Source of the DNA: a virus
Taxonomy: Duplodnaviria; Caudoviricetes
Reading direction: 5' to 3' (one strand)
IMG/VR virus record: IMGVR_UViG_3300017791_000207
Span: 51,288 to 115,287 of that record
DNA length: 64,000 nucleotides
Numbering within the stretch: position 1 is the first letter of the stretch; each line of letters starts with the position of its first letter. The notes under the pieces were generated by a model. That model had not been told where the DNA came from, searched no databases, and saw only the letters and a program-made list of their open reading frames with translations. Shown piece by piece: positions 1,828 to 55,218 of the stretch. Position numbers and translations under genes: made by a program.

Positions 1828-2235
1828 TTAGCAAAATTTTTGTTTTATTTCTTGATAAAATTCTTTACCTTCTTCTGAAAGGTCATTTTTAAACCACCAT
1901 TTATCATTATCATGTAGACAAGATAGCTCAATTAAAAATTCTTCTCCTAATTCTTGAATATCTTCGGGCAGCATATTCCATATTCTACTAATCCCTGCTT
2001 CTCCAAATACTTTATCAATTACTTTGCGTAGAGATTTAGGGAGCAATCTACCCACAGCATCTCCATCTGTTTCTACCATAAGGCTTTCTCCACTATACAT
2101 GACTTGTCCCCAATATCTATTTGTAAAGCCTCTGTAGTCTTCTTCCTCTTTCCATCCTATGCAGCGAGGATGTTCTTTGTAATATTGGACTGTATCATCC
2201 AATATCTGTCTTCTACGATTTTTAATTGGTTTCAT
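1828..2235 (-). CDS. Hypothetical protein, paralogue of 12290-12709
   Basis: Shared pattern LD...YY...RC...(D/C)(A/M)(V/I)GR...LP...EF...LHDN...W...L...G. Confidence 0.7.
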   Translation of the reverse strand: MKPIKNRRRQILDDTVQYYKEHPRCIGWKEEEDYRGFTNRYWGQVMYSGESLMVETDGDAVGRLLPKSLRKVIDKVFGEAGISRIWNMLPEDIQELGEEFLIELSCLHDNDKWWFKNDLSEEGKEFYQEIKQKFC

Positions 2236-5053
2236 TGTATAAATTTTTTACATAATAATTCCATCCACTCCATTCCATATAAACGCGCGGTTCTCTTGGT
2301 ACGATAGGGTTGTAAGGAAGATTTTTGAAATCTCTAATATTTTTTACTTTATTCACTAATAGATATTTAATAAAATCTTCGTAATTTAATTTAACATATC
2401 TTATTTTACTTGGAAAGAAATCCTCTTTATTATATTCTTTATAAAATCTATTAGGGTAAAGAGGTAAAATATTTTTTGGAAATTCTATGTTTAATGAACC
2501 TTCTTTCCACTTTCTATATTGTCTAATACTTGATATAATTCCATTATGCTTCTTATTTACTTCAATTATAGTTTTCTTAGCATCTTCATAAGAAATATAT
2601 TTTAATTCTTGTAACTTTTTCCAATTCCATTTACCTTTATAAACCGAATAAGGGTTTTGTGGAATATAAGGAGGATAATTGTCCTTTCTTTTTTCATGAG
2701 TGTTACAATCTAAAATTTCATTTCTTACAAACCATTTAATAGCTTCTTCAAATGATAAAAATCCTTCTTTATAGTTTAAAAATTCGTGCCATCTAAATTT
2801 AACACCATACCTTTTTTCAGGATCTTTTGGAAGATTTGGGGGAAAATCATTTTTTAAAGTCCATTTTTTATATTGTCTAAATGTTTTAATGTTTGAATGA
2901 TTCTCTAAAATATATTTTTTAGCTACTGGATAACTATAAATCTCAGGTTTGAAAATGTTTTTCCAACCAGGCCAATCTCTATAATATTCTCGTGGATATC
3001 GAGGACAACGATAATTTTTTATTTTTAAATATTCTTTCTCTGTATAAATCTGTTCTCTTTTTAAGTATGTTTTTAGTTCTTCTAATGTATAAAACTTACT
3101 TCCTTTTATGAAACTAAATTTAAACACTTCTTTAAAATCAAAAACTTTTAATTTATTACCAGAATATTCCAAAAACTCAATATTTCCCTTAAAAGTACTA
3201 TTATTAGGCTTGGCCTTAAAAGAGGTTATTCTTCCATCTTGTGTTTCTAATGCATTCAGTACTTCGATTAACTTTTCATAATCTTCTGATTCTGAGGGAA
3301 TTATTACATATCCTCGTTTTTTATTAGGATACTTACGAATGCATCTGCCCACTGATTGTACAATATCAATTTTACTTTTCTTGGGATAACCATATAAAAC
3401 AGCATCCGTATTCCTTACATCCATTCCTTCCTGAAAGCAATTTACCGAGGATATAACTGCCTTTTCAGCGTTTACAAAATTACCATATTGATTTTCATAT
3501 AAAAATTCTGTTTGTTTAGAATTAATAGTAGAAGTATTGTAATCTAAACCATGAATCTTTTGAAATTTGTCATAGACTTCTATAAATAACTCGGCTTCAT
3601 GAATAGTGGGATGATAAGTTATTATCTTTTTGATACCATATTTCTGTATTGATTTAATGAGTGCCAACGCAGAAACTAAAATTCGAGTCTTAATACCTAA
3701 CTTAATATTTTTATCAAGGAAAAATTCTTCATTTATTTCCAATATATTCCTTACTTCTTCAGATTTAAAACCTATACTAAGTATTTTATAATCTAAGACT
3801 ATTTTGTTTTGAATCATTTCGGGTAATGAAATATTGGATATAGTTTCTCCAAATTTTTCATTATTCATCCCTATACCCTCATTAAGAAAGATTTTTTCAG
3901 TAGCTGTTAAAAATAGGGCTTTCTCATATTTAGTAGAAGTAACTGCCGAAAGATACTTCTTATTTTCAGGTCCTGCTATTCTATGAGCTTCATCAAAAAT
4001 TGCTAATTGAAAATCAGGAAATTTATTAATGATGGATTCAAAACTTTTTAGAGTTGTAAATACTACAATATTAGCAGTCTTACTTATTCCTTGTATAGCT
4101 TCCATTTGCTTTTCTACAGAAGATGCAAGTAATGCAATTTTATTACTTTTAAGAGGTTTTTGAAATAATGAACCAAAGGCATAAAACCTGTGGTTAGGTA
4201 AAGAGTTCTTGAAAGCTTTTATTTGTTGATATAATAACATTCGGGAAGGGATAACTACTATCAGCCTTTTAATATCTAATTTCTTGACTATTTCAATAGC
4301 TGTATAGGTTTTACCTGATCCACATGGATGTATTACCTTACCTCTGTTATTATCCTTAAAAAATTCTACTGCTTTATTTATGGTGCATGTTTGATGTTCC
4401 CACTCTTTAAATTTAGTAGTTGTCTGTTGATCTTTTGTTGGAATGACTTCCAATTTCCTTACAAGAGGTTTTTCATTTATAAGAGTTGGAATAATAGAAC
4501 TAAAAGCATTTTCGATGTTATTTTTACTTAATTTAGTATCATCTTGAATGGTTTTTAGACAAATTTTCCCCTTTTGTAGAAGTGTGTAAACACCAATTAA
4601 GTTTTGAAGTGCTTTTTTGTCTTTCCCTTGGAGGTTAGTACCTTTATCAAAGGAGTAAGATTCACCACAGTTATTACAGTCATATCTTTTACCGCGCTGT
4701 ATTACATTGGTGCTACTACATTTAATACAAGTTTTGTTATCTCCCCATATAATTTTCTCAAAATAATCATATACAAAGCTTTCAGTAGATGAAATACTCT
4801 CAATATCTTTTCCTTCAAGAGGTCTTTCAAACTTATCATAGGAATTTCTATCTTGAATATCATAAACCTTAAAATAAGATTTATATTTCTTTTTGAGTAC
4901 TTCTAATATTTCCTCTTCTGTAAATTCTTTATCTTGTTCAGCTAAAAATAAATACAAATCAGAAATAAGATCATCTTTTTCAAAGAAGTTACTCTCAAAA
5001 GCACCATTTCTGAATTGTTTATCTATTATTTCGGATATTGTATTATATTCCAT
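2222..5053 (-). CDS. SF2 DEAH-box helicase with N-terminal IS1595-like zinc ribbon and C-terminal P-x-x-P-x-x-x-Y...W repeats
   Basis: Walker A HPCGSGKT, Walker B FDEAH, motif III LTAT, EGMDV, QSVGRCIR; CIKC...YDCNNC; about 5 C-terminal repeats. Confidence 0.85.
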   Translation of the reverse strand: MEYNTISEIIDKQFRNGAFESNFFEKDDLISDLYLFLAEQDKEFTEEEILEVLKKKYKSYFKVYDIQDRNSYDKFERPLEGKDIESISSTESFVYDYFEKIIWGDNKTCIKCSSTNVIQRGKRYDCNNCGESYSFDKGTNLQGKDKKALQNLIGVYTLLQKGKICLKTIQDDTKLSKNNIENAFSSIIPTLINEKPLVRKLEVIPTKDQQTTTKFKEWEHQTCTINKAVEFFKDNNRGKVIHPCGSGKTYTAIEIVKKLDIKRLIVVIPSRMLLYQQIKAFKNSLPNHRFYAFGSLFQKPLKSNKIALLASSVEKQMEAIQGISKTANIVVFTTLKSFESIINKFPDFQLAIFDEAHRIAGPENKKYLSAVTSTKYEKALFLTATEKIFLNEGIGMNNEKFGETISNISLPEMIQNKIVLDYKILSIGFKSEEVRNILEINEEFFLDKNIKLGIKTRILVSALALIKSIQKYGIKKIITYHPTIHEAELFIEVYDKFQKIHGLDYNTSTINSKQTEFLYENQYGNFVNAEKAVISSVNCFQEGMDVRNTDAVLYGYPKKSKIDIVQSVGRCIRKYPNKKRGYVIIPSESEDYEKLIEVLNALETQDGRITSFKAKPNNSTFKGNIEFLEYSGNKLKVFDFKEVFKFSFIKGSKFYTLEELKTYLKREQIYTEKEYLKIKNYRCPRYPREYYRDWPGWKNIFKPEIYSYPVAKKYILENHSNIKTFRQYKKWTLKNDFPPNLPKDPEKRYGVKFRWHEFLNYKEGFLSFEEAIKWFVRNEILDCNTHEKRKDNYPPYIPQNPYSVYKGKWNWKKLQELKYISYEDAKKTIIEVNKKHNGIISSIRQYRKWKEGSLNIEFPKNILPLYPNRFYKEYNKEDFFPSKIRYVKLNYEDFIKYLLVNKVKNIRDFKNLPYNPIVPREPRVYMEWSGWNYYVKNLYNETN

Positions 5054-5232
5054 TATATTCTAAATATTGTTTTGATTAAATTTTTAGTTGCCAAATCAGA
5101 AATAGTTTTAACTACGCCTGATTGTTGTCTTTCTAAATTTTGAGTATATCTTTTCTTATACTCTTCTCGAACTTGTTCAGATTTTTTTAATGACCATTTT
5201 CCATGAACAAGATATTTGTCTATTGTATTCAT
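5053..5232 (-). CDS. 59-aa basic protein between RT and helicase (MNTIDKYLVHGKWSLKKSEQVREEYKK...), absent from the ORF track
   Basis: Start overlaps the RT stop (ATGA); stop overlaps the helicase start (TAATG). Confidence 0.7.
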   Translation of the reverse strand: MNTIDKYLVHGKWSLKKSEQVREEYKKRYTQNLERQQSGVVKTISDLATKNLIKTIFRI

Positions 5233-6170
5233 TGTATTAAAAGTTTAGCTTCAAGATTCCTCGCGTTGGCATGACCAGTCCAACCAAGATAGGAAGCGAT
5301 TGATGTTAATTTGTGCCTGTTTCTTCGGAAATTTTCTTTGATATATTTTCTTACTTTTACTTTATCCTGATCAATTACATAACCAAGGAAGTCCAAAGGT
5401 CTTTTATTGATAGGAAATACTTGTTTATTCGAGAGTTTCAATCTTAATTTTTTATCAAGGTAATCTTCAATCTCATTTTTCAAGTAATATAAATACTCTT
5501 TACTCTCATGAAATATTACAATGTCATCGCAGTAGATAGCAAGATATTTTATTTTTATGACTTCTTTAAGGTAATGTGAGAATTCGTTAAGATAAACATT
5601 TCCAAACCACTGCGAGGTAAAATTACCAAGTACGCAGCCATGCTCGATAGAATCAATAATCAAATCTAACAACCACAATAAATCAGGATCTTTAAACTTA
5701 CGTCTCAGAAAGCCTTTCAAAAGGTCGTGAGATAGTGATGGGTAAAATTTCTGAATATCCATCTTCAAAACATACTTAGTTCCTTTCCTATCTTTAAGAT
5801 GTTTCTTAATGTCTTTCAAGCACTTATGGACTCCGCGCGATTTAAGGCAAGAATAGGTCTGAGAAATAAAACTATCTTTTAAAATATCTCCAATGACAAG
5901 TATTATCGCCCATTGAACAACACGATCTTTAAATGGAAGCTTTGAAATAATTCTTTCTTTAGGCTCATAAATCTTGAATACGAAATACTCCGATAACTTA
6001 TAGGTTCTTGTTAATAATTCTTGCTGTAAGAGTCTCAAATTTTCACTTAAATTACTGTTCCATATCCTAACATCCTTCTTCTTTCTTTTGCCTTTCTGCG
6101 CCTTCTGAGAAGCCTTTATGAGGTTCTCCATACTCACTATCTTATAGAATAAATTTCCTTTTCTTTTCAT
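5229..6170 (-). CDS. DGR reverse transcriptase
   Basis: MKRxGNL N-terminus, EPKER, FKDRVVQ, KMDIQKFYPS, DGR signature LGNFTSQ, catalytic YCDD, DFLGY; adjacent TR/VR pair. Confidence 0.96.
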   Translation of the reverse strand: MKRKGNLFYKIVSMENLIKASQKAQKGKRKKKDVRIWNSNLSENLRLLQQELLTRTYKLSEYFVFKIYEPKERIISKLPFKDRVVQWAIILVIGDILKDSFISQTYSCLKSRGVHKCLKDIKKHLKDRKGTKYVLKMDIQKFYPSLSHDLLKGFLRRKFKDPDLLWLLDLIIDSIEHGCVLGNFTSQWFGNVYLNEFSHYLKEVIKIKYLAIYCDDIVIFHESKEYLYYLKNEIEDYLDKKLRLKLSNKQVFPINKRPLDFLGYVIDQDKVKVRKYIKENFRRNRHKLTSIASYLGWTGHANARNLEAKLLIQ

Positions 6171-6330
6171 TCTTTTATTTTATCACTCAACATCCCTGAG
6201 TGCTTATTACTAAGTCTCTTTCTACAATGATACTAAAGCCCGTTCAACTCATCTGTTTTTTACCACGGCTAGAAATGAGAAATATATTCTAACTTTATAG
6301 GTAGGGTCTAATTGTCTTTCTTTTTTATAA
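6171..6330 (-). ncRNA. DGR spacer RNA between TR and RT
   Basis: 160 nt non-coding segment directly 3' of TR and 5' of RT on the minus strand. Confidence 0.7.
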
Positions 6331-6406
6331 TAAACATACGTCTGAAGGAATCATCGTGTTGTTGTTCCAATTGTTGTTGTAGTTGACAACTCAGTCGTGA
6401 TCAGAC
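6331..6406 (-). repeat. DGR template repeat (TR)
   Basis: Non-coding, AAC-rich (GTC AAC TAC AAC AAC AAT TGG AAC AAC AAC); gap-free 76-nt match to 6543-6618 with 18 mismatches, all at TR adenines. Confidence 0.96.
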
Positions 6407-6464
6407 TTTGACTAAGGGGGTAGAATGTAGACACATTCAATTAGACCTTTTACTTGCTTTTATA

Positions 6465-7016
6465 CTACTCGTTTATCATTGAATAGTCATCATATATTTC
6501 AGGGAACATTTCATATGCTTTTAAAGCTAATTTTGAAGATTTAAAACACACGCCCGAAGGAAGCAACGCGCCGTTGCTCCAATCGTAGCTGCAGTAGACA
6601 ACCCAGCCGAGATCAGACGAATAATACTTGTATGGAAAATATTTACCCATACTTGTATCTTTCCAAGTAAGCTCAGTTCCTCCATTCATTACTTCCGAAA
6701 TAATCATCATCTTTTCAGATGCATTGATACTTTTTTGACGTGGGGTGAGTTTATTACCTTGGTAAGGAAGAACCAATTTATCTAGTCTTTCTTGAATGAC
6801 AGACTTATCGATATCTCCTGGTTCTTTAAGGTATTTCTTCAGAGTTTTAGTTTGTTCTTCGTTGGCAGCTTCAAACATTTCAGATACTTGTGCTTGTGTA
6901 AGTTCTGTATCTTCAAATAGAGAAGTCATTTTCTTGATTTTACTCTTCCAATCTTGACAAGCGATATCAAAAATGGCTTTCATACCTTCGTAAGGTACTT
7001 TTTGTGTGTTACTCAT
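6465..7016 (-). CDS. DGR target protein (~183 aa; VR near C-terminus followed by CFKS...YDDY tail; possibly minimal C-type-lectin-like fold)
   Basis: Contains VR; likely start MSNTQKV at 7016 after an A-rich leader; fold is inference. Confidence 0.9.
   Translation of the reverse strand: MSNTQKVPYEGMKAIFDIACQDWKSKIKKMTSLFEDTELTQAQVSEMFEAANEEQTKTLKKYLKEPGDIDKSVIQERLDKLVLPYQGNKLTPRQKSINASEKMMIISEVMNGGTELTWKDTSMGKYFPYKYYSSDLGWVVYCSYDWSNGALLPSGVCFKSSKLALKAYEMFPEIYDDYSMINE
6543..6618 (-). repeat. DGR variable repeat (VR) within the target gene
   Basis: Encodes SDLGWVVYCSYDWSNGALLPSGVCF; differs from TR only at adenines. Confidence 0.96.
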
Positions 7017-7026
7017 GTGTTTTGTT

Positions 7027-7281
7027 TTACTGTTTATAAATATATAGATAATTGTTGATAACTTTATATACAAATCCTTTATAAAAAACAGACTTAGCAT
7101 CAATTTCACTTATCCTATAAAGAAACTCTAACCAAGCATCTTCTTCCTCTCCAAAATTAGCATCATCATAATCAGATAAACTAGGATGATCTAAAATTTC
7201 GGAGGCTCCTTCAGATAAGGTAAAGGAATTATACACCTCGTCTAAATTTTTAGCTTTTAATATTAACCTGTCTTCTATCAT
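7027..7281 (-). CDS. Small acidic hypothetical protein
   Basis: 84-aa ORF immediately upstream of the DGR target. Confidence 0.6.
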   Translation of the reverse strand: MIEDRLILKAKNLDEVYNSFTLSEGASEILDHPSLSDYDDANFGEEEDAWLEFLYRISEIDAKSVFYKGFVYKVINNYLYIYKQ

Positions 7282-7589
7282 TCAAAATTTATTTAGGTCA
7301 TTAATTGGAAAGTTAGTAAGGTGATCTTCAGGTATCTCAATTCGGTTGATACCTTGTGGTTGAGCGGGAATATTGGTTTTGATTGGCTCACCATAGAATA
7401 AGAAGTTCATTATTTTGCGTATCATCAGTTTTTAGATTGAGACGATTATTAGTATTAATATTAACCAAATAAATATGTTGAGTAGTTTCAAGTAGAGTGC
7501 AAAGTTAAGTTGATTATGTGAATATTAGTTGTTAAAAATTCGATAATTAAAAATTATGGTATTATAAAAACAAATATATGATAAAATTG

Positions 7590-7620
7590 ATTGGAATGTG
7601 GAAAATTTACCATAACTTTG
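7590..7620 (+). promoter_or_regulatory. Bacteroidota-type promoter
   Basis: TTG-N19-TAACTTTG. Confidence 0.55.
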
Positions 7621-8003
7621 CGTATCTGAAGCACAGCATTCGGGCTAAAGTCATTCCATCGCTACTTTACAGAGAGCTTGCAGATGAAATCCTCCTCATC
7701 TTTGGAGAGGGTACAGTTATACTTTTTTGGGAGAACCTTTATTAGTTTTTCTATACCATTGACTATTAGGAGTACGAAGTACAGAACACCCACAAGTCAA
7801 GAAGGAGTACGAAAGGAAACCTGTAAGTATAGAGTGCTAGACTAAAAGTGCGAAGCACAAAGGTTTAAACCATTAACTATACAACTAGAAACCAAAATAG
7901 TACTCAAATAGAGAATCAAGAGTGGAAATGTAAAATAGAGGAAACGATCAAGAATAAGTACGAAATATGAGGCGTTTTCTTGACATTTATCAAGATTATA
8001 ATT

Positions 8004-8534
8004 ATGAATAAATTGAAATATAAATCATACAGTAGCATTAAACCTTCTTTTGCAGAGGTTCAAATCATCCAACAATTAAAAGATAGAAATATCTTCTATG
8101 TTAGAGAAGTGTATTTTTATGGTTGTACAAATCCTAAAACAGGTTGTGAGTTAAGGTTTGACTTTTATATTCCAAATAAAAATCTCATAATTGAGTATGA
8201 TGGTAAGGATTTTCATGAAGATAATGATGTGCAATACAGAGATTCGGTTAAGAATAAGTTTGCTAAACTCAACAAGATAAAAGTTGTGAGAATCGAAGGT
8301 ATTCAGAATATTACTAAAGTATTAAACCAATATTTCAATTCTAAGAGCAAGCCTAAGTTCAAAAGTAAAAATACCAAAGCACAATCTTATGGTTTATCAA
8401 ACAATCAAAAGAAACGTCTAACTGAACTTTTACAGCTTCAAAAAGATAGTCCTTTAGAATTTTATGATATGCTGATGGATATTAGAAAAACAGAGAAAAG
8501 AGTGTATGCCGAATTAAAGAGACAATTCCCTTAA
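8004..8534 (+). CDS. PD-(D/E)XK (DUF559/Vsr-like) endonuclease, probably a free-standing mobile nuclease
   Basis: LRFDFYIP...IIEYDGKDFH...RDSVKNKF...VVRI; opposite strand to neighbours, own promoter. Confidence 0.8.
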   Translation: MNKLKYKSYSSIKPSFAEVQIIQQLKDRNIFYVREVYFYGCTNPKTGCELRFDFYIPNKNLIIEYDGKDFHEDNDVQYRDSVKNKFAKLNKIKVVRIEGIQNITKVLNQYFNSKSKPKFKSKNTKAQSYGLSNNQKKRLTELLQLQKDSPLEFYDMLMDIRKTEKRVYAELKRQFP

Positions 8535-9962: not shown

Positions 9963-10364
9963 TCATTGTTCAAAAACATTTTCAGGATTTTCGCGGATAT
10001 ACTTTGCAATTTCAGGCCATGTAACCCCATCATCATTCATGGAAGCAAGGGAATTGTGAATTTTTCCATTTATTAATACTTCAGTGCCGAGACTACCAAC
10101 ATTAGATTTTAACCCAAAAAGGGAAGAGGAGTGTGTTAAGGTTCCTGTCCAAAATTTGTTATCCTCAATAAGACCTGAATTATTGAATAATTTGGATATC
10201 GGTTTATTTTCAATCTCGTAACTACATAACAACAATTGCCCAAGGCAACAAGCTGTATATTTTTCAGGTGATCCGCTGCCAAGGACATCTTTTCCTTGTC
10301 GTTCAGGATGCTTTTCTAAGGTATCTAACCAAAGAAGCTGTAATGGTGTGAATTGATAGCACAT
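9963..10364 (-). CDS. Hypothetical protein of CCLG...SLASxND family, paralogue of 13624-14046
   Basis: Shared CCLG and SLAS(M/L)ND...T..EI motifs. Confidence 0.75.
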   Translation of the reverse strand: MCYQFTPLQLLWLDTLEKHPERQGKDVLGSGSPEKYTACCLGQLLLCSYEIENKPISKLFNNSGLIEDNKFWTGTLTHSSSLFGLKSNVGSLGTEVLINGKIHNSLASMNDDGVTWPEIAKYIRENPENVFEQ

Positions 10365-10368
10365 AGTT

Positions 10369-10590
10369 TTATTTTTTAATGGTTAAATCAATAATATCCG
10401 TACCTTCTACTTCAAGGAATGAGATATATGTTTGTGTTTCCGTTTCAGTAATGTGAATTTTCGGGAAATAACGTTTCAAACCTTCGATATAAGCAGGAAT
10501 CATCAACGGATCAATAGGTAAAAGATCTTGTGCTACTTTACGTTTCTCTGTTTCAGTTATGTAACTGATTTGTATTTGATTGAGTGCCAT
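10369..10590 (-). CDS. Hypothetical early protein
   Basis: ORF in operon. Confidence 0.6.
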   Translation of the reverse strand: MALNQIQISYITETEKRKVAQDLLPIDPLMIPAYIEGLKRYFPKIHITETETQTYISFLEVEGTDIIDLTIKK

Positions 10591-10623
10591 AATGAAAAAT
10601 GTATTTTTCTGATACTTGGAGTT

Positions 10624-10935
10624 TTAAAATTGTTCGTCTTCGCTCATTGCATAACCTTGGAACATCATAGACGCTTCATTATACGCATATTCAGCCATAT
10701 AACTATGTTTGTTATATTTGTGCAAAGACCTTAAGATATCTATTATTTGTCGACATTTCTGAACTTCTTTATCATGCTCATAACCATGCGTTTCTTCGCA
10801 ATCTGACCCCATGTTTTGAAGTAAGACATATATCATAGTGTATTCGGGCATGTCAAAGTATTCCGACACTTGATGATAAACCTTATTGAAGTCTCTTAAA
10901 TCCCTCTTGAATTGCTTTAGTGTTATAGGTTGCAT
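10624..10935 (-). CDS. Hypothetical early protein
   Basis: ORF in operon. Confidence 0.65.
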   Translation of the reverse strand: MQPITLKQFKRDLRDFNKVYHQVSEYFDMPEYTMIYVLLQNMGSDCEETHGYEHDKEVQKCRQIIDILRSLHKYNKHSYMAEYAYNEASMMFQGYAMSEDEQF

Positions 10936-17168: not shown

Positions 17169-17573
17169 TTTATTTTAGAATTAAGTTGATGTATATCAAT
17201 AGATTATGTTAAAAATAACAAAAAAGGTGTACAGTATTTTACCAAATAATATCTATGAATTTTGAACCATGCACATAGGTATTTTATCAACCATTACAAA
17301 AACTTACTTTCCAAAGACTATCTATAGAAAGATCATTTTATTACATGGCTAATCAAATCTTTAAAAATAAGAATGACTTTTTATTTTGGCTGAATTGGCC
17401 TGTAATAGGAAAATTGGCTTTGATCCTTTTGGCGGGATATACAGGCATGTGGAGTCTTGCCGTGGGCGGGTTGAATAGACCTATACTAACTTATCTTACA
17501 TATACTAATTTTTAGAGTTATATTGTTGATAGGGGGATATAAGACTGATGTCCAAAATAAATGTGGGGTATTA

Positions 17574-17605
17574 TTTGTTTATTTCAAATTTTTATTCTAC
17601 CTTTG
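17574..17605 (+). promoter_or_regulatory. Bacteroidota-type promoter
   Basis: TTTG-N20-TACCTTTG. Confidence 0.65.
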
Positions 17606-17627
17606 TAAGAAATTAAAAAATAATAAA

Positions 17628-18569
17628 ATGGCTAGAGATTACAAAAGAAACAAATTTTCAGGTATTTATCTTATACGTAATAATAACAATGGTAAATGTT
17701 ATGTTGGATCATCCGTACATATTCTTTATAGAATACAACTTCACCAGAGTAAGCTTCGCAATAATAAAAATAATCATCATCCATACCTACAAAAAGAATA
17801 TAACGAATTTAATGGTGAAAATTTTGAATTTATCATCTTAGAATCTTTTATCGAAGGTATTAGTCTCGAAGAACTAAGAGAAAAAGAGTGGAGTTACATG
17901 GAAGGGTACGAAACATTTAATCCTGATAAAGGTTATAATCAAACTCATCCTGTGACTCGTGAACATTTTTATAAGTTACCAACTACTAGAACTTGTCGTT
18001 ATAATCCTATAATATGTATTAGCGTAGATTCTATAATTGAATTTAGTAACTCACAAGAGGCTTCTGAAAAATTAGGGTTGATTAAAAAGAAGATAGAAGA
18101 TTGCTGCTCTTATTGGAATAATTTAGATTCCAGAAAAAGATACCTCAAGAAAAGTCATAAAGGTTATATTTTCGTTAAAAAGTCAATATACAATCCAGAA
18201 TTTGATTATTTAAATTATAAAAAAGATCCTGTAAGAACTGCTCCTCCACGCCCTAAAAAAGAAAGAGTTTATGAAAAAATAGAAAGAACCTATAGATTAT
18301 CTCCTAATGCTAAACCAATAAGATTAGAAAAAGATAGTGAATTTTTATACTTCTCCTCAATTAAGGAATGTGTAAGAGTGATGGGTATGTTAGATTCTAA
18401 AATAAGACATGCTCTTAAACAGGAGTATAAGCAACGCTCACACCATGGTTATTGGTTTAAGTCTATTACAATAGAAGAGTATTTAGAACATAGATGTTTT
18501 GATGATATAGTTTTACCTGAGAAATCAAAACATCTTAGGAATGTGACATCAGATACATTCCTCCCATAA
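17628..18569 (+). CDS. GIY-YIG homing endonuclease with NUMOD1-like HTH repeats
   Basis: SGIYLIRN...YVGSS...R...H...E...GYN; FSNSQEASEKLG and FSSIKECVRVMG repeats. Confidence 0.9.
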   Translation: MARDYKRNKFSGIYLIRNNNNGKCYVGSSVHILYRIQLHQSKLRNNKNNHHPYLQKEYNEFNGENFEFIILESFIEGISLEELREKEWSYMEGYETFNPDKGYNQTHPVTREHFYKLPTTRTCRYNPIICISVDSIIEFSNSQEASEKLGLIKKKIEDCCSYWNNLDSRKRYLKKSHKGYIFVKKSIYNPEFDYLNYKKDPVRTAPPRPKKERVYEKIERTYRLSPNAKPIRLEKDSEFLYFSSIKECVRVMGMLDSKIRHALKQEYKQRSHHGYWFKSITIEEYLEHRCFDDIVLPEKSKHLRNVTSDTFLP

Positions 18570-23061: not shown

Positions 23062-23352
23062 ATGGCTAAGAATTCCTTTATAGATCAGGATATTGAATGG
23101 TGTGAAAAAAGACTCCAAGAGTGGCAAAAATTTGTTGAGGATAATCCTGTAAATGAATTAAAAACACAAATAGAAGTAGTAAATGGAAAAGAAATGGTTG
23201 TAGCAACTATACAAGCCCAAGGTAAGTTCATACAAGAAACTATGAAGAACATAATTGCTATGACTGAAGCCTTAGATAAACTTCGTGAAAAAGAAGCTGC
23301 TAAAATAGAAGCAAGAGGTGGAGGAGATATTCCTTTTAGAATGCGTAAATAA
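23062..23352 (+). CDS. Small helical protein coupled to terL (terminase small subunit candidate)
   Basis: TAATG overlap with terL; assignment from position only. Confidence 0.45.
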   Translation: MAKNSFIDQDIEWCEKRLQEWQKFVEDNPVNELKTQIEVVNGKEMVVATIQAQGKFIQETMKNIIAMTEALDKLREKEAAKIEARGGGDIPFRMRK

Positions 23353-26300
23353 TGGAAATAAAGACTACAGAGTTTTTTAAAAATATAAAAAAACTTCCTC
23401 CTATAGGTTCAAAGGAATTTGAAGACCTTGTTAAATGGGAGGAGGAGAAGTGTTTAGGTGGTGTTACTGTTAATGGATATCCTATTTCAGGATTTCTATA
23501 TTGGTATCTAAATCACTGGAATATACGTATTGATTTACCTCCTGATGAGAATGGAAATATTCCAAGGATAAAATCCTTACCTCATCTAAGAGACAATGAA
23601 ATAGTTGTATGCGAAGGTCTCGAAACTGGACGCAGAGAGCAAAAAGGTTACCTGCAAATAGGTGGACGCCAGCTGGGGAAGTCCGAAATTGAGGCTGCCT
23701 ATTGTGGTATGTCTGCAACTCTATACGAAAATAGTCAGAATATTATCGTAGCAGGTAATGATGCCGATTTAGCCTTGATGAGGGATAAGGTAGATTTTGG
23801 ACTAAAGAATCTTTGGGAAGGATTAAAAATTCCTCGTCTTGATAAGACATGGAAAGATAATATGGTTCGCCTTGGTTTTAAACATAAAGATGGTGAAGAT
23901 GATATTTGGTCTTATTTAGTTATTCGTAATGCTAAAGACGGTCATAACACCGAAACTGCCGCAGGTACAACTGCAAAGTCTTTTATTCTTGATGAAGCTT
24001 TAGAAGAAAATGAATTACTTTACCAAACAACAGGTGAGATAAAAATAAAAGATGTTAAGATAGGAGATAAAATATTTGATGATAAAGGCAATCTTACAAA
24101 AGTAATAGATAAAGTTGATGTTGGAATTGTTGACTTATGGGAATTTACTTTTAAGGACGGTAGAAAAATAACTTCTTCAGGAGATCATATTTGGTCTTTA
24201 TATAATAACCATCTTAATAGATATATTGAAATTACAACTAAAGACCTTGTAGATAAAGGTTTTTATTATGATAAATTTGATAGTCGTTATAATAAACATG
24301 CTCGCTGTTTTACTTATTCTGTAAAGAATGCAAATGCAGTTGATTATCAACCAAAAGATTTAGAAGTAGATCCTTACTATCTTGGCTGTTGGTTGGGTGA
24401 TGGAACATCTTCAAAACCAACAGAAGTTTGTTCAATAGATGATTACATAATAGAGTATTGCGAAAAAATAGGAAAACATTTTAATCTAAAACCAAGAATA
24501 ACTACAGATAAAAGTAAGAATGAAAAATTCAGAAATATAAATTTAGCTAAACAAGGTGGGTATAAAAATATACTTACTACTCTGTTTGAGGAAATGAATT
24601 TGGTTAATAATAAACATATTCCATATAAATATTTATATGGTTCCTATGCTGATAGATTAGCCTTATTACAAGGTTTGATGGACACCGATGGGAGTATGTC
24701 TGAAACAGGTATGATAGAGTTTAGCTCATCTTTTCCTAAATTAGCTGATGACTTTGAAAAATTATGTAGAAGTTTAGGTATTAGTATTAGAAGGTCAATA
24801 AAGGAAACTTATTATATTTATAAAGGAGAAAGAAAAAGAGGTAAGGATACACATAGATTTAAACTTTATACAGGTATAAGAGTTTTCAGATTACAAAGAA
24901 AAATAGAAAGATATAATTTATCAAGAAGAAATAACAATAGTAAAAAACAAAAAGCTTATAAAGAACGATGTCCTTTAATTAATATTGAATATAAAGGTAA
25001 GGGTCAAGCTTACTGTATAAAAGTAGATAACGAAAGTAAACTATTTCTTACAACAGGTTATACTATAACTCATAACTGTGGTAAATTTCCTTTTGCACAG
25101 GCATTTGAAGCTGCTAAACCTGCGTTTAATTCAGCTTATGGATGGAGGGCAGTGCCAATTTTAATGGGTACTGGGGGTGCCTTTGAAAAGGGAGCAGATG
25201 CTGAAAGATTCTTCTATAACCCAGAAGCTAATAATCTTGTTTCCTATCTTGATGAGAAGTCAGGCATTAGTACAGGATTATTCTTATCGGGATTATACAG
25301 ACAAGACTGTAAAGATGTAACAAATCTTGCTGACTATCTTACAAGGGTAAAAGGCATGGTTTTAGAAGATACTTCAGAACTCGAAAAAATAGAAATAAGA
25401 GTTACCAATGAAGAAAAGGCTCTTGCCAAGATATTAGAAGAAAGAGAAGAAAAGAAAAAAGATCCTGATCAAACAGAATACCTCAAACAAATCATGTACT
25501 ATCCTCTCACAGTTGAGGAATGTTTCATGACTGTGAATGGTAACTTATATAATGCAGAGGCTGCTCGTGCAAGAATCAAAAAGATTAACTCAGAAGGGAT
25601 TACAGGACAATATGTAGAGGTTTACCATGATGGTACTAAATTAACACATAAGCACTCTCATAAATTACCTGTTTCAACATACCCTGCCAAAAAGACTGAG
25701 AATAAAGATGCTCCTGTAATAATGTGGGAAGCTCCTATGGAAAATCCACCATTTGGTCTATATGTCTTTGGTGCAGATCCATATAGAACTGACCAATCAG
25801 AATGGTCTGAATCATTAGGTTCTATCTACATTTATAAAAGAGTTCACTCAATTGCAGGAGAAGACTTTCAGGATATGTTTGTGGCTTCTTATTGTGCAAG
25901 ACCTAAAACAGTAGAAGAATGGTGTCAGAACGCCATGAATTTAATTGAATACTATAACGCCTATGGTTTAGTTGAGAATGATGACATGGGATTTATCAAT
26001 TGGATTATTCGTAATGGAAAAGAACATCATCTCGCAGCTTCTTTTGATTTCTTGAAATCATATAAACTTGAATCAAAAACATCAAGAACATATGGTATTC
26101 ATCGATCTAATCCTCGTATAGTAACCATTCTTAGAAATAATTTAAAGACATATTTAAATGAAAAGATTGGTGAATTTGTAGATGATAAAGGTGAAAAAAC
26201 AGGAGATATACTTGGTGTGAATAGAATATTTGATACAATGCTCCTTGAAGAAGTATCTAAATTTAATGGTATATTAAATGCGGATAGAGAAGTTGCAGCA

Positions 26301-26462
26301 AGTTTAGCAGTCACTATTGCAAATTATCTTGACCCTGTTATAGGAGTTGTAGGACAAACTAATCAAGATCCAAGATTCAAGGCCATATATTCAAGGAATA
26401 AACTTCCTAAACAAACATTTTCAAATCTAAGAACTCCAACGTTCTCCAAAAGAAAAAGATAA
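23352..26462 (+). CDS. terL: Terminase large subunit, intein-containing
   Basis: GGRQLGKS Walker A, FILDE Walker B, MGTGG, nuclease GADPY; directly upstream of portal. Confidence 0.92.
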   Translation: MEIKTTEFFKNIKKLPPIGSKEFEDLVKWEEEKCLGGVTVNGYPISGFLYWYLNHWNIRIDLPPDENGNIPRIKSLPHLRDNEIVVCEGLETGRREQKGYLQIGGRQLGKSEIEAAYCGMSATLYENSQNIIVAGNDADLALMRDKVDFGLKNLWEGLKIPRLDKTWKDNMVRLGFKHKDGEDDIWSYLVIRNAKDGHNTETAAGTTAKSFILDEALEENELLYQTTGEIKIKDVKIGDKIFDDKGNLTKVIDKVDVGIVDLWEFTFKDGRKITSSGDHIWSLYNNHLNRYIEITTKDLVDKGFYYDKFDSRYNKHARCFTYSVKNANAVDYQPKDLEVDPYYLGCWLGDGTSSKPTEVCSIDDYIIEYCEKIGKHFNLKPRITTDKSKNEKFRNINLAKQGGYKNILTTLFEEMNLVNNKHIPYKYLYGSYADRLALLQGLMDTDGSMSETGMIEFSSSFPKLADDFEKLCRSLGISIRRSIKETYYIYKGERKRGKDTHRFKLYTGIRVFRLQRKIERYNLSRRNNNSKKQKAYKERCPLINIEYKGKGQAYCIKVDNESKLFLTTGYTITHNCGKFPFAQAFEAAKPAFNSAYGWRAVPILMGTGGAFEKGADAERFFYNPEANNLVSYLDEKSGISTGLFLSGLYRQDCKDVTNLADYLTRVKGMVLEDTSELEKIEIRVTNEEKALAKILEEREEKKKDPDQTEYLKQIMYYPLTVEECFMTVNGNLYNAEAARARIKKINSEGITGQYVEVYHDGTKLTHKHSHKLPVSTYPAKKTENKDAPVIMWEAPMENPPFGLYVFGADPYRTDQSEWSESLGSIYIYKRVHSIAGEDFQDMFVASYCARPKTVEEWCQNAMNLIEYYNAYGLVENDDMGFINWIIRNGKEHHLAASFDFLKSYKLESKTSRTYGIHRSNPRIVTILRNNLKTYLNEKIGEFVDDKGEKTGDILGVNRIFDTMLLEEVSKFNGILNADREVAASLAVTIANYLDPVIGVVGQTNQDPRFKAIYSRNKLPKQTFSNLRTPTFSKRKR
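23997..25076 (+). mobile_element. 360-aa class 3 intein with LAGLIDADG endonuclease in TerL
   Basis: Starts Ala (DE|ALEEN), ends ITHN|C; DHIW, AYCIKV, THN form the W-C-T triplet; YLGCWLGDG and LQGLMDTDG. Confidence 0.9.
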
Positions 26463-52800: not shown

Positions 52801-55218
52801 GCAACTGATCCTGCCGTAAGGTCTATTATTGCAGCAGGATTATTTGGAACAACAACAGCCAATATTTGCGGAGGAAGACTTTTGGAAGCTGCGTATAATG
52901 CAGTTGTTTATGGAGCACAGGCTTACAAAACTACTCAACCTGAAGCTACTAAAAAGACACTTTCTAACTTTCGTGAATTTGATGTAAATGCTTACTATAC
53001 ATCTCTAAAATCTTATCTTCCTTCACAATGGGGAAGAATGTATTCCTATACAACGGTTGATACAGGATATTACCAAAACTTTGGTGATGAACCTAAGACA
53101 ATATTTGGTGGTGATACATTTATTAATAAGTTTACATTAAAGACTAAGTTATCAGTATTTAATAAAACAACAATTGGATTACCTGACGGAGCTGATATTG
53201 CCTTAAATGAAGAAGGTAATCTTGGTGATCCGATGTTCTATATTTCTACCAAACCTATTACTTATAATTATCAACTTGATGATGCAGCTCTAAATGAAGC
53301 TTTCCAAGGAATAGGATTAATAGATAAGAATGCCTTATATGGTAATCTTGCCCAACAAATTGGAGCAGGCATCCTTGCTGCGGGATTAGGTATTACTGCC
53401 ACAGGAGCACTTGCTATTCCAGGACTCATTGTTACGGCTGTGGGTGGAATTGTTTATATCATTGGATCAATTTTGAAAAATATAGGTAATAAAATAACCA
53501 AAGCAATCATTAAGCTTTATAGAGATTTATTCCAACAGTTGATGGATACCATCGGAGTTAAGAATATTAATCTTGATATGGCTACCCAAACAGGAATAGC
53601 ACACCAAGGTATTTTCTATCAATATGTATTTGGATTACCTACATTCTTTGTGGAGAGTCAGGTTAATGTGGATTATCGTCAAGCCACCAATGATAACGAA
53701 GGTAATTTCTATCCTCGTGTAGGAGAAGGTGTACCTGATGATTGGCTCCAACCACAAAGAGTGCCATTAGAATATGATAATTCATATGTTTATAATAAAA
53801 GTTATTCTAAACAAAATGAAGAGAGTTTTTTCTCTCATCTAAGAGAGGATTTTGATCCAAGTAAATTATGTTTCTCTGAATTTCCTAATCGTGCAATTTG
53901 GTCAGAGAAAACAAATCTTAGTGAGACACTTAATAATTGGTTGATATTTAAACCTATTAGCAGGTTTGATTTTCCTAAATCGTATGGTAAGTTAACCTCA
54001 TTGGATGGTATTTCTAATGGTGTAGTAATGGCACGATTTGAAAACAAAACTCAATTATACAATGCACTTACTACTGTAAACACTTCTACATTCCAAGCAT
54101 ACCTTGGTAATGATACTTTATTTCAAGCAAAACCATTAGACTTTTCCGAGACTGATGGAGGATCACTAGGTTCTCAACATAAGTTTTTACTTCGTACCGA
54201 GAATGGTAATATTTTTGTGGATTCTCTAAGAGGTCAAGTAGTCCTTTATAGAGGTGAACAACCACAGATAATTTCTGATTTAGGAATGAATAGATGGTTT
54301 TCAGAAAATCTTCCATTCAATATAAGTAAAAGTTTTCCTGATGTAAATACAGATAATAACTTTAAGGCCATCGGGATACATGGTGTCTATGACCAAGAAT
54401 ATAATAGAGTAATTCTAACCAAATTAGATTATCAACCTATTGCAGAAGGTATTCAATTTAACAATAATAAATTCTATTCAGATGGTAAGGAAATTCAACT
54501 TACGGACAGTAAATACTTTTGTAATAAGTCATGGACAATGTCCTTCAGTTTTCTTTCAAATTCATGGATCAGTTATCACTCATACCTACCGAATTATTAT
54601 ATAGGATACCCAAACACCTTCCAATCAGGTAATTCAACAGGTATATACACCCATAATACCAATTATACAACTTTTCATACTTATTATGGAAAAGCAGAAC
54701 CATATATACTTGAATATCCATTAACTTATAGTACACCTCAGGATCAGGTAATTCAATCAATCAGAGATTATTCAACAGCTCTTATCTATCAGAGTAAGGA
54801 TATTTCATATGAACCAACTGATATATTATACTTTGATAAGGCAGAATTATTCAATAAGAATCAACACACAGGTACAAGAAATTTAATACCTAAACCAAAG
54901 AATGATCTTTCGGCTCTTAGAAAATATCCAAAGTATAATTCTGATTCAATAGATATTCTTGTGGATAAAAGGGATTCATGGATTAGCTTTAATTCACTTT
55001 GGGATATAGTCCAAGATGCCAACAAACCTATCATGGATATTTCATGTTCATCAAACCTTATGGAGGCTGATCAAACTAATTTGGATTATACTCGAAGACC
55101 ATACAAAAATATTCTACTGAGAAGTAAAAATGCACGAATCAGACTTACACTCAACAAAAATAATTTCAAACTAACAAGCAGGTTGGTACTTGCACAATCC
55201 ACCGAAAGCAATGCCTAA
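49882..55218 (+). CDS. Tail stabilisation/muzzle protein (P22 gp10-like)
   Basis: 1778 aa; GMNTD, YWTDN, GYMRDEVY, IRHHKFPD, FHSPD, FGGDTFI, SWISYHSYLP. Confidence 0.8.
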   Translation: MGYTPLQATAGMNTDNLDGNIPQGFLTFANNAVITSFDRSYVSYSTEQGNDFCVKPPEGYNVIGKYNITEQNRVILFLVNPTTNTSQIGQLKNCTYSPIITAECLGFNIDYPIHQIVIKTTNCSTELYWTDNLSNMRYINLDDLPFREVPDPNNDYKKIKIDGEVDCNKMLIQSNFSIPQTNIISTEQGGVLKEGAYQFGVAYSNELGETYSPFFNVTNIISIKEIDRATQNFDTQTDQAIRVKVENLDTSGVFDYFVLIVAETINAITTFKRVGVYPIANESYDTLYTGDSDTAIQITAEQLFQQFQYYDLAQGVTQSDERVIFYGVKEKQKINYQPIWSKVILNWETHKLPYTQTEAYINPINTLELKGYMRDEVYPFEGAFILTNGKTTESFHIPGRLPIDTDLIDVPLDNLDSNVTETNCETPTSKKYWQVYNTGTVTGFSDEFQGNETDLCYKGSYQYGEFSYWESGETYPNNESIWGSLANKPIRHHKFPDELVTKRFTTDGDTSFVYPIGVKINIGSLRAAIENSDLTQEQKDEIVGFKIIRGKREAGNQSIKAKGYMTNVGSYEYEDQKYYFPNYPYNSLDIDPLYADNTKIKQGTGFNFDKVRKPYQDNQGKDQFTFHSPDTHFGRQAAIDQGYLKIEAIDYGTGKGHFVPIKNNAEYKFLTQDAIKASVVLASGVAFDFDKGGHPQFNGTDAVSVYSNTQALFEKLIAYQNFGYMIDSQATFNQSFAVPNEGNKIRGIEYGKYLRGGGVESIENGLPLNNYLRESSVYLKTNAELLYATEYSSIIPDDNSRIIATIDSNIEITPEEFFNTLKNEMTVATMTALILGMRTAAKEILPDNENSTTILTQMIGLILDPIISGQPFSVLQALSNQSNNCNDVAGIYPTYNINYSASNTALNTPYTQVPTPQNIDVYASSGELLSGGNPAPTFTINNNVPTITSNQQFTINYMVDTLNLTLDQEAQITATDPAVRSIIAAGLFGTTTANICGGRLLEAAYNAVVYGAQAYKTTQPEATKKTLSNFREFDVNAYYTSLKSYLPSQWGRMYSYTTVDTGYYQNFGDEPKTIFGGDTFINKFTLKTKLSVFNKTTIGLPDGADIALNEEGNLGDPMFYISTKPITYNYQLDDAALNEAFQGIGLIDKNALYGNLAQQIGAGILAAGLGITATGALAIPGLIVTAVGGIVYIIGSILKNIGNKITKAIIKLYRDLFQQLMDTIGVKNINLDMATQTGIAHQGIFYQYVFGLPTFFVESQVNVDYRQATNDNEGNFYPRVGEGVPDDWLQPQRVPLEYDNSYVYNKSYSKQNEESFFSHLREDFDPSKLCFSEFPNRAIWSEKTNLSETLNNWLIFKPISRFDFPKSYGKLTSLDGISNGVVMARFENKTQLYNALTTVNTSTFQAYLGNDTLFQAKPLDFSETDGGSLGSQHKFLLRTENGNIFVDSLRGQVVLYRGEQPQIISDLGMNRWFSENLPFNISKSFPDVNTDNNFKAIGIHGVYDQEYNRVILTKLDYQPIAEGIQFNNNKFYSDGKEIQLTDSKYFCNKSWTMSFSFLSNSWISYHSYLPNYYIGYPNTFQSGNSTGIYTHNTNYTTFHTYYGKAEPYILEYPLTYSTPQDQVIQSIRDYSTALIYQSKDISYEPTDILYFDKAELFNKNQHTGTRNLIPKPKNDLSALRKYPKYNSDSIDILVDKRDSWISFNSLWDIVQDANKPIMDISCSSNLMEADQTNLDYTRRPYKNILLRSKNARIRLTLNKNNFKLTSRLVLAQSTESNA

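Follow-up and report, generated by a model that had tools for sequence, protein, structure and literature searches.

The window that we analysed, a 64,000-nucleotide stretch of a 115,287-bp phage genome, carries a compact DGR in which target gene, TR and reverse transcriptase (RT) follow one another, all on the minus strand. The target gene (6465..7016, with its ATG at 7016) encodes a 183-aa member of phrog_11581, whose start was set by homologues beginning with MSNTQKVPYEG. Within it lies the VR (6543..6618), which corresponds to target residues 134-158, the end of a beta-hairpin and the loop that follows, and which is succeeded by 25 further target codons, very close to the number that had been estimated in the first-pass annotation. 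The non-coding TR (6331..6406) contains 26 adenines; read in the frame of the VR it gives N-Y-N-N-N-W-N-N-N, with runs of AAC/AAT codons. A TR-RT spacer of 160 nt (6171..6330), comparable in length with that of relatives (101-177 nt in most), leads to the gene of the 313-aa DGR reverse transcriptase (5229..6170) with its GxxxSQ (LGNFTSQ) and YxDD (YCDD) motifs. The RT stop overlaps (ATGA) a basic ORF of 59 aa (5053..5232), which maybe lies outside the element and which abuts the start of the next gene downstream, encoding an SF2/ResIII helicase with a zinc ribbon (2222..5053) that is given for context only. We also considered this small ORF as a homologue of the ~98-aa gene (phrog_19665) that is conserved behind the RT of relatives, and rejected it as the homology was unsupported.

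Aligned on the coding (minus) strand, TR (6406 to 6331) and VR (6618 to 6543) match without gaps over 76 nt. All 18 mismatches fall on TR adenines (18/26), leaving 0/50 differences at the other positions, and the probability that all 18 land on A sites by chance is 1.2e-11 (hypergeometric), which confirms the repeat pair and the adenine-only differences described earlier. A chance resemblance or ordinary duplication beside an unrelated RT, for which the small repeat size speaks and nothing more, has virtually no probability left: it is refuted by this A-only pattern (P ~1e-11) together with the recurrence of the same layout at 56 related loci. In the family alignment the VR falls in the hypervariable block, and the truly variable core spans approximately residues 141-152, where conservation among close homologues is 18%, compared with 70% elsewhere in the protein. 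At the last four adenine differences (TCA/TCG, GAC/GGC, GTA/GTG and TTA/TTT) the encoded residues are kept in homologues, those at the VR 3' end reaching 85% identity compared with 18% in the centre. These four are better read as fixed differences between IMH and IMH* than as fresh mutagenesis, and the same fixed 3' A-to-G/T differences recur in all VR copies of relatives. The TR has an in-frame TGA at the codon of the conserved Trp138, so that many retrohoming events would yield null alleles. Scanning the whole 115,287-bp genome with the TR pattern (N at every A, three mismatches allowed), the check proposed for remote VRs, returned the TR and the VR only, with no further copy and none in tail genes; the genes annotated as fibre genes therefore carry no VR.

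The RT proved intact, in line with its annotation: the ORF matches Pfam RVT_1 at 1.7e-15 and phrog_1423 at 2.9e-107, and it can be aligned over its full length with 71 DGR RTs, the majority of them accompanied by a TR/VR pair of their own. The description of the element as compact and Avd-less held as well, with no match to Avd (PF05635) at E<=1 in the whole genome and no ORF between target and RT. Avd, an accessory protein that many but not all DGRs possess, is likewise absent from five records of the wider class described below (PF05635 search), including one that is 100% complete. [quoted passage not shown]

At its 3' end the VR carries an IMH-like element (CCTTCGGGCGTGTGTTTT, 6543..6560), which is G-richer than its TR counterpart and encodes the conserved PSGVCF, and the TR ends in an IMH*-like element (CCTTCAGACGTATGTTTA, 6331..6348), recognised from the TR/VR alignment and by analogy with BPP-1; following the BPP-1 paradigm (PMC3240598), the two ends probably act as IMH and IMH*. 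The TR is bracketed by a perfect 10-bp duplex between a 5' arm (GGTCTAATTG, 6438..6447) and a 3' arm (CAATTAGACC, 6305..6314) located in the spacer, 17-26 nt past the TR end. This duplex is present in both the MFE and the centroid folds and corresponds to the duplex described as 'cPRT Stop' in DGR RNAs (bioRxiv 10.1101/2023.10.23.563531). Most of 41 relatives have an equivalent stem of other sequence at the same position, which in 17 of the 41 beats 95% of shuffles. The whole intergenic RNA fold is no more stable than shuffles (z = -0.29), and the support for RNA structure is limited to the bracketing duplex and derives from the comparison with relatives. Since only 16 nt separate the TR from the 3' arm, there is no room for a BPP-1-type Avd-binding stem-loop; from BPP-1 work, the spacer is presumed to be the RT-binding and priming RNA. 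Rfam gave no match in 4800-7600, and a scan for sigma-70 promoters and terminators performed no better than on shuffles.

In the mechanism that we propose, the transcript across TR and spacer would fold such that the 10-bp duplex closes the TR into a loop. In copying the TR into cDNA, the RT would misincorporate at random opposite adenines; the cDNA would then replace the VR, whose G-rich 3' IMH would set the direction. The process would run without Avd and rewrite some 11-12 codons of the C-terminal domain, at the end of the beta-hairpin and in the loop after it, with the 183-aa soluble phrog_11581 protein as its sole target.

In this protein, a duplicated beta-alpha-alpha unit forms the N-terminal domain (residues 1-65), and the C-terminal domain (66-183) bears the VR. 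Sequence analysis found no transmembrane segment or signal peptide, in agreement with what had been annotated for a target of ~183 aa. Hydrophobic segments are absent as well, the highest Kyte-Doolittle mean over 19 residues being 0.72, and the pI is 5.2. A profile search with the target retrieved ~988 family clusters (50% identity); the target matches phrog_11581 at 3.1e-5, and 40 of 61 family members match it too. Other, longer phage proteins also end in the N-terminal domain. Neither the target nor 61 relatives nor ten of these longer proteins matched Pfam, and a sequence-profile search of the PDB with the target yielded no match below E = 0.03. Predicting the target fold, as had been suggested, yielded a confident AF2 model (pLDDT 92) but no match to a PDB fold: for the models (pLDDT 92 and 91) the best Z was 4.7 with the whole protein and 3.6 with the VR domain, the best Foldseek E was 0.55, and a lectin chain was absent among the matches listed. 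ESM Atlas matches were to unnamed viral clusters only. The predicted topology comprises four helices and one hairpin, and the C-terminal domain finishes with two further helices. An hhalign comparison of the target with Mtd-like targets gave a probability of 5%. Benler et al. nonetheless term a long-VR homologue a lectin (PMC8008677).

Genes of the phage are arranged in opposed strand blocks, and its genome carries a DTR of 141 bp. Its portal is 29.5% identical to the top match, from a Leptolyngbya phage, and 23-24% identical to portals of crAss-like (cr*) phages; Cellulophaga, Flavobacterium and Azobacteroides phages were also matched, and a large virion protein of the genome matches phrog_37948 (PHROGs). 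We class it as a putative Crassvirales-type genome, a distant crAss-like phage of ~115 kb, and the closest target homologues (P0003-P0006) sit on contigs of 98-117 kb. Neither blastn nor tblastn with the locus and the target as queries found a match in the phage GenBank collection, and no close relatives were found in IMG/VR and JGI metagenomes with protein patterns and the TR pattern (N at each A). Relatives at 90-93% occurred in four sequencing runs only, in small shares, three of these runs being labelled soil metagenome. Some of their contigs end or switch at VR and TR, contigs cannot reveal minor variants, and the contigs from the four runs are silent either way on VR activity and on habitat.

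The cassette belongs to a class of widespread phage cassettes, ordered target(s)-TR-RT, which serve the phrog_11581 family, usually as their only detected targets. In IMG/VR, 56 of 80 family loci have a DGR RT directly downstream of the target, and the cassettes of the class have 1-3 tandem targets, one TR of 62-92 nt, and each VR 21-37 codons before the stop. Small tandem targets were reportedly listed by Wu et al. in 2018, perhaps as CLec3, which we mention as a lead. With ~988 clusters in the family, an RT at most of the 80 loci and Avd-less layouts being common, the claim of a new or unusual system was not borne out.

Diversification is ongoing in this class. Five near-identical class phages show 18-22 differences per 3,100 positions, and all but one of these lie in two VRs, there exclusively at TR-A sites; variation that is almost confined to such sites demonstrates that the class is active in these other members. 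The present genome could still hold a relic, its VR differences recording past activity and its target no longer being diversified. Close kin of other class members have lost TR and RT while keeping the targets, a second family paralogue in the same genome has a decayed VR, and the conserved ~98-aa gene that follows the RT in many relatives (phrog_19665) is missing, with no copy elsewhere in the genome. Against these points stand the full-length RT with its intact catalytic motifs, the perfect flanking RNA duplex and the 0/50 non-A differences, which imply no drift since the last homing event, and we consider a relic unlikely.

The target gene is part of the replication-side strand block, ~30 kb away from a structural block that is encoded on the opposite strand. 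The label of 'fibre genes' that the first-pass annotation gave to 37.9-43.6 kb is unconfirmed, because PHROGs gave no match for three of those ORFs. In 17-19 diverse relatives, the immediate neighbours of the cassette are DNA-metabolism genes (recombination, replication, methylase); neighbours across the class include SbcC-like, RecT-like, hydrolase, helicase, primase, methyltransferase and Mu transposase A/B genes, and at one locus a terminase large subunit is encoded immediately upstream. This recurrent placement among recombination, replication and methylase genes makes a non-structural role of the target plausible, and the class cassettes may occupy early recombination, replication or counter-defence modules, although the position of a gene says little about what its product does and when it is made. 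On balance, we lean towards a canonical DGR whose phrog_11581 target acts as an early cytoplasmic variable binder and not as a virion receptor-binding protein. Such a protein would be made early, stay in the cytoplasm and, as a variable binder, take part in the conflict between phage and host, for instance against host defence proteins.

The target might instead act outside the cytoplasm, either as a virion accessory adhesin docked by its N-terminal domain or as a lectin-like receptor masker released upon lysis, which would mask receptors on debris or infected cells; in both cases the DGR would still serve receptor recognition. All DGR targets of known function are surface or ligand-binding proteins, and the N-terminal domain ends longer phage proteins too, as a docking module might. 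Two cultured Bacteroides phages, Versailles and BI-TP1, carry a family member as the distal second VR, in the same gene context. A single TR in Versailles diversifies a tail protein along with the family member. This connects the family with receptor-binding chemistry and leaves room for an extracellular role; together with the remote VR of BI-TP1 it points to a displayed peptide of the receptor-binding type. Opposed to this are the DNA-metabolism genes that immediately adjoin the cassette in all 17-19 loci (the terminase locus included), the ~30 kb and the change of strand between target and structural block, and the judgement of Benler et al., who read a homologous distal target as non-structural (PMC8008677). 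We hold an extracellular role to be the less probable reading. Starting again from the early cytoplasmic binder, one may tentatively go further and see in phrog_11581 a second, non-lectin DGR scaffold. Inside the infected cell, its variants would evolve, much as antibodies do, to inhibit host defence or targets of host takeover, which would amount to DGR-driven adaptive counter-defence, with a dedicated cassette here; this extension we regard as less likely than not.

DGRs are understood through surface-exposed lectin-fold binders. The very large family described here, of small cytoplasmic-looking DGR targets in an early or counter-defence setting and with a predicted fold unlike solved structures, suggests another use of DGRs, namely targeted hypermutation in an intracellular arms race. 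DGR targets of this kind have already been described as non-structural and defence-linked by Benler et al. in 2021 (PMC8008677) and in Nature in 2025 (PMC12629997); the novelty initially attached to a non-structural target was thus not sustained, and the idea of an intracellular arms race is itself in print as a hypothesis in these same two papers. Our analysis adds a clean case of a DGR serving only such a target and extends the class to an environmental, putatively crAss-like phage. Taken together with Versailles and BI-TP1, cultured phages that carry homologues, it shows where bench work could address function.

Compared with BPP-1 (mtd-avd-TR-brt), the present DGR has in common the order of target-VR, TR and RT, the A-specific mutagenesis and the G-rich IMH-like VR end opposite an IMH*-like TR end. 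It differs by the lack of Avd, by a target without Mtd-like resemblance in hhalign, by the position of the VR, which lies 25 codons ahead of the stop and not at the C-terminus, and by a TR of 76 nt instead of 134 nt. Published crAss-like DGRs (PMC7290462; Epsilon, PMC11054128; Zeta, PMC12386605) sit in Crassvirales-type genomes, a type to which ours is putatively assigned, and the Zeta cassettes are, like ours, mostly Avd-less with a GxxxSQ RT (PMC12386605). Those DGRs belong to the structural block, and the proteins that they diversify are tail fibres or receptor-binding proteins whose C-terminal domain is a lectin domain (PMC7290462; PMC11054128; PMC12386605), whereas the present cassette lies outside that block and has no VR in a tail gene. 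The nearest RT relatives in IMG/VR (L004-L072) have RTs that are 35-46% identical and the same compact layout, with no gene between VR and TR, but their targets are 350-1,500 aa long, with the VR 0-15 codons from the end, a TR of 95-120 nt and C-termini that match Mtd (1e-10) and TaqVP. Only the closest RT relative, L003 (48%), has the small target family in common. The Hankyphage target was considered as a relative and rejected, being a lectin protein of 2,225 aa.

In Quimbyvirus/LoVEphage-type Bacteroides phages, the distal target is called a C-type lectin by the authors (PMC8008677; PMC12629997) and has a VR of the lectin type that measures 107-113 nt, compared with 76 nt here; unlike these phages, the present one has a putatively crAss-like genome of 115 kb and apparently does not come from the gut. 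The closest parallels are the 193-aa protein of Versailles, encoded at 10181-10762 of ON453897, and gp84 of BI-TP1, accession PQ571265, which match the family profile at 1e-14 and 1e-18, respectively. Both are true VRs of a DGR TR and sit among methylase, recombination or tRNA-ligase genes, as described (PMC8008677; PMC12629997). The BI-TP1 protein is a remote VR of the TR that lies beside its RT. In Versailles, the small protein is 44 kb away from the TR and the cassette lies beside the tail protein with which it shares that TR, whereas in the present phage the cassette adjoins its target and serves the family protein alone.

The diversity-generating retroelement (DGR) is encoded entirely on the minus strand, with the ORF of its 183-aa target (7016 to 6465) first in reading order, followed by the template repeat (TR, 6406 to 6331) and, after a spacer of 160 nt, by a reverse transcriptase (RT) ORF of 313 aa (6170 to 5229). 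The variable repeat (VR, 6618 to 6543) lies in the 3' part of the target ORF, 136 nt from the TR; it encodes residues 134-158 (SDLGWVVYCSYDWSNGALLPSGVCF) and leaves 25 codons to the end of the target. Re-alignment bore out every figure of the first-pass annotation: the ungapped TR/VR alignment spans 76 nt, with 18 differences that all fall among the 26 TR adenines and 0 at the 50 other positions (probability of this A-only placement, 1.2e-11). Its statement that the presumed fibre genes hold no VR copy also held, as a scan of the whole 115,287-bp genome with each TR adenine set to N and three mismatches tolerated returned TR and VR alone. The RT, which bears LGNFTSQ and YCDD motifs, has matches to RVT_1 and to phage RT family phrog_1423 (2.9e-107), and its whole length aligns with 71 IMG/VR RTs, most of which have an A-biased TR/VR pair of their own; a search of the genome for the accessory protein Avd (PF05635) found none. 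Read in the VR frame, the TR gives S-D-H-D-stop-V-V-N-Y-N-N-N-W-N-N-N-T-M-I-P-S-D-V-C-L, in which the stop is a TGA (6391-6393, minus strand) whose VR counterpart, TGG, encodes the conserved Trp138. Of the TR/VR pairs in the wider class of phage cassettes with the order target(s)-TR-RT, 22 of 87 likewise have a TR stop in frame where the target has a conserved Trp or Phe codon. Faithful copying of the TGA adenine would truncate the target, so that a template copied without mutation would yield a null allele.

The virus record (115,287 bp, G+C ~32%) has direct terminal repeats and is rated complete, and we confirmed an exact terminal repeat of 141 bp. Plus-strand blocks encode the terminase, portal, major head protein and a 1,778-aa virion protein, and the DGR lies within a long minus-strand block (genome 14.6-67.5 kb, ~80 ORFs), where the gene following the RT is an SF2 helicase and most other neighbours are small ORFs that had no match. 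The portal is 23-24% identical to those of crAss-like (cr*) phages and also matches Cellulophaga, Flavobacterium and Azobacteroides phages, the best match being a Leptolyngbya phage (29.5%); these matches suggest a distant crAss-like phage. Homing-endonuclease-like genes with HNH and GIY-YIG type PHROG matches were observed at 7980-8534 (+) and 17523-18569 (+), the former being the sole plus-strand ORF within the minus-strand block, ~1 kb upstream of the DGR target. The terminase large-subunit ORF (23352-26462, +) is unusually long at 1,036 aa; TerL families match its successive stretches ~213-579 and 576-1025, the first ~200 residues are without match, and it could represent an insertion, intein or fusion.

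A word-indexed search retrieved eight relatives of the target (45-73% identity, four on contigs of 98-117 kb), whose alignment is conserved outside the VR block. Identity of the target to its five closest homologues (P0002-P0006) is 18% at the central TR-adenine codons (141-152), 85% at the four 3' TR-adenine codons and 70% elsewhere. By exhaustive profile search the family, which corresponds to phrog_11581, comprises 988 representative clusters (50% identity level, E<=0.001), mostly of 120-195 aa; in the ESM Atlas its nearest clusters are unnamed and mainly viral. In GTDB, members were found in Dyadobacter, Chitinophagaceae, Sphingobacterium, Bacteroides, Phocaeicola and Clostridia MAGs (Christensenella, Borkfalkiaceae; L155-L164), presumably as prophages, which gives the class hosts in both Bacteroidota and Bacillota. 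The window's own genome holds a second paralogue outside the window (G000:C1:42160-42618, minus strand; 3161-3619 of fetched locus L154), 15 kb further downstream within the minus-strand block of the DGR, of about 144 aa and C-domain type (profile E = 1.8e-30). Its VR-like stretch has 13 non-A differences and a 3-nt gap relative to the TR, and it is not a current target of this TR.

Scanning a family sub-alignment against IMG/VR yielded 284 relatives, for which 80 loci were fetched, and in 56 of these a DGR RT lies directly downstream of the family member. Nearly all 56 have a single TR of 62-92 nt immediately upstream of the RT, preceded by one to three tandem paralogues, typically a two-domain protein first and then copies of the C-terminal domain alone, with each VR 21-37 codons before the stop. 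The nearest RT relatives (35-46% identity) are likewise compact in layout, but serve targets of 350-1,500 aa whose VR sits at the very C-terminal end and whose C-termini match Mtd (1.5e-10) and TaqVP, with a TR of about 95-120 nt; only the closest RT (L003, 48%) has the small target family in common. Avd was absent from the five class records examined, one of them complete, and most Zeta crAss-like DGRs also do without it (PMC12386605). Given this layout and the Avd-free class records, being compact and Avd-less is thus ordinary in this RT lineage. In many class cassettes a conserved ~98-aa gene (phrog_19665) overlaps the RT stop (L082:8003-8299, L076:8020-8316, L085:8413-8715 and others; 8 of 133 neighbour ORFs tallied) and may be an accessory factor in place of Avd. 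The window's genome lacks this gene and has, in the post-RT position, a basic 59-aa ORF (5053-5232) without convincing similarity to it.

A perfect 10-bp inverted repeat (6438-6447 and 6305-6314) brackets the TR and is present in both MFE and centroid folds. Among 41 non-redundant relatives, a search of the 66 nt around the 5' TR boundary against the 66 nt around the 3' boundary gave a longest helix of median 10 bp, which usually lay 5-20 nt before and 5-25 nt after the TR, varied in sequence by locus, and exceeded 95% of shuffles in 17 of the 41 loci. The repeat corresponds to the 'cPRT Stop' duplex of the BPP-1 RT-Avd-RNA structure, which is predicted for 207 other DGRs (bioRxiv 10.1101/2023.10.23.563531). 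Whereas BPP-1 has an Avd-binding stem-loop between TR and duplex, only 16 nt separate the two in the window, as would suit a DGR that lacks Avd.

Contigs of five near-identical phages, recovered from different samples (L093, L103, L104, L131, L145) differ pairwise at 18-22 of 3,100 aligned positions; all differences but one fall in two VRs, every VR difference is on a TR adenine, and judged by these comparisons the class is active. In these contigs all VR copies share the same base in place of each of the 3'-most TR adenines, as would be expected of the directional 3'-end signals IMH (VR) and IMH* (TR). By analogy, the last four TR/VR differences of the window (TR CCTTCAGACGTATG, VR CCTTCGGGCGTGTG) are probably directional signals and not recent mutagenesis. 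Compared with class member L093, four close kin with flanks 95-99% identical (L112, L115, L124, L136) show a clean 1.65-kb deletion (L093:6542-8189), which takes out a 110-aa ORF, TR and RT and keeps both target genes, and is a presence/absence polymorphism of the diversifier. IMG/VR and JGI contigs contained no further copy, and 90-93% relatives were found in only four sequencing runs, in small shares and as contigs only, three being labelled soil metagenome. Within window 6260-6660, contigs of these relatives from runs labelled soil metagenome (X1-X3) either stop inside the VR (X2 at 6571) or have replaced sequence across VR (6561-6656) and across TR (6260-6474). Assemblies often break at hypervariable loci, and these breaks are uninformative by themselves. 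That the window copy is no longer active we consider quite improbable, an estimate independent of what the target binds.

An AlphaFold2 model of the target (61 relatives as alignment, pLDDT 92.2) has a duplicated strand-helix-helix unit at residues 1-65 and a C-terminal domain of helix, long helix, beta-hairpin, loop and two helices, the VR forming the second hairpin strand and the loop. Neither Foldseek (best E 1.2) nor exhaustive alignment to 48,161 PDB representatives (best Z 4.7) gave a convincing match for the whole model, nor did the same comparison for the C-terminal domain alone (pLDDT 90.8; best Z 3.6, best E 0.55), and no lectin-fold chain was among the listed matches of either. BFVD matches were uncharacterised proteins alone, from crAss-like and other phages, and profile-profile comparison with the Mtd-like targets of the RT relatives gave a probability of 5%. 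Structure and profile comparisons thus contain no positive sign of a C-type lectin fold; we do not assert that the target is non-lectin, because long-VR homologues have been called lectins (Benler et al. 2021, PMC8008677).

Across 17-19 diverse loci, cassette neighbours include an SbcC-like nuclease, RecT-like protein, metal-dependent hydrolase, helicases, primase, replication initiator, DNA methyltransferase, Mu-type transposase A and B and HNH endonucleases; in L076 the terminase large subunit is directly upstream, the cassette there apparently lying at a module border. The unvarying setting among early or counter-defence genes in unrelated phage types, the lack of export signals in the target and the fact that the window DGR serves no tail gene at all argue for an intracellular binder, to which we give about an even chance. 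An extracellular or virion binder is rather unlikely in our estimate; it draws support from the external ligands bound by every characterised DGR target, and from the cultured Bacteroides phage Versailles, where a family member and a tail protein are diversified from a common template. The remaining probability belongs to some function that is neither. Versailles was found, together with BI-TP1, PV4-TP1 and LoVEphage genomes, when GenBank phages were searched by tblastn with a family member. Its family gene lies between SbcC/RecT/hydrolase/NinB genes and a replisome organiser, and that of BI-TP1 among methyltransferases, with a tRNA ligase near. The family profile matches each protein both before and after its VR, and both genes are genuine remote VRs (14/22 and 15/26 A changes, 0 other changes), the TR adjoining the RT. 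In Versailles (ON453897) one TR (53832-53938) is the template both for the C-terminus of a protein annotated as a tail protein (VR1, 53630-53736) and, at a distance of 44 kb, for the small family member (VR2, within 10181-10762), whose own annotation as 'tail protein' is probably due to the VR segment alone.

The first-pass annotation had proposed an intracellular binder and a candidate new system. A DGR without a tail-gene target, in a neighbourhood that is early or counter-defence across the 17-19 loci, supports the former in part; the novelty did not stand, given the 988 family clusters, the downstream RT in 56/80 loci and the publication of the situation in 2021 for Quimbyvirus. Roux et al. 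2021 classed viral DGR targets as structural or unknown only and held VR domains to be lectin folds. The remote-VR arrangement of Versailles and BI-TP1 is the situation described for Quimbyvirus by Benler et al. 2021 (PMC8008677). The diversification mechanism is the known one, and the window DGR adds one more clean variant to a class already noted and widespread; it is set apart by its dedicated cassette, single target, short VR and crAss-like environmental host phage genome.
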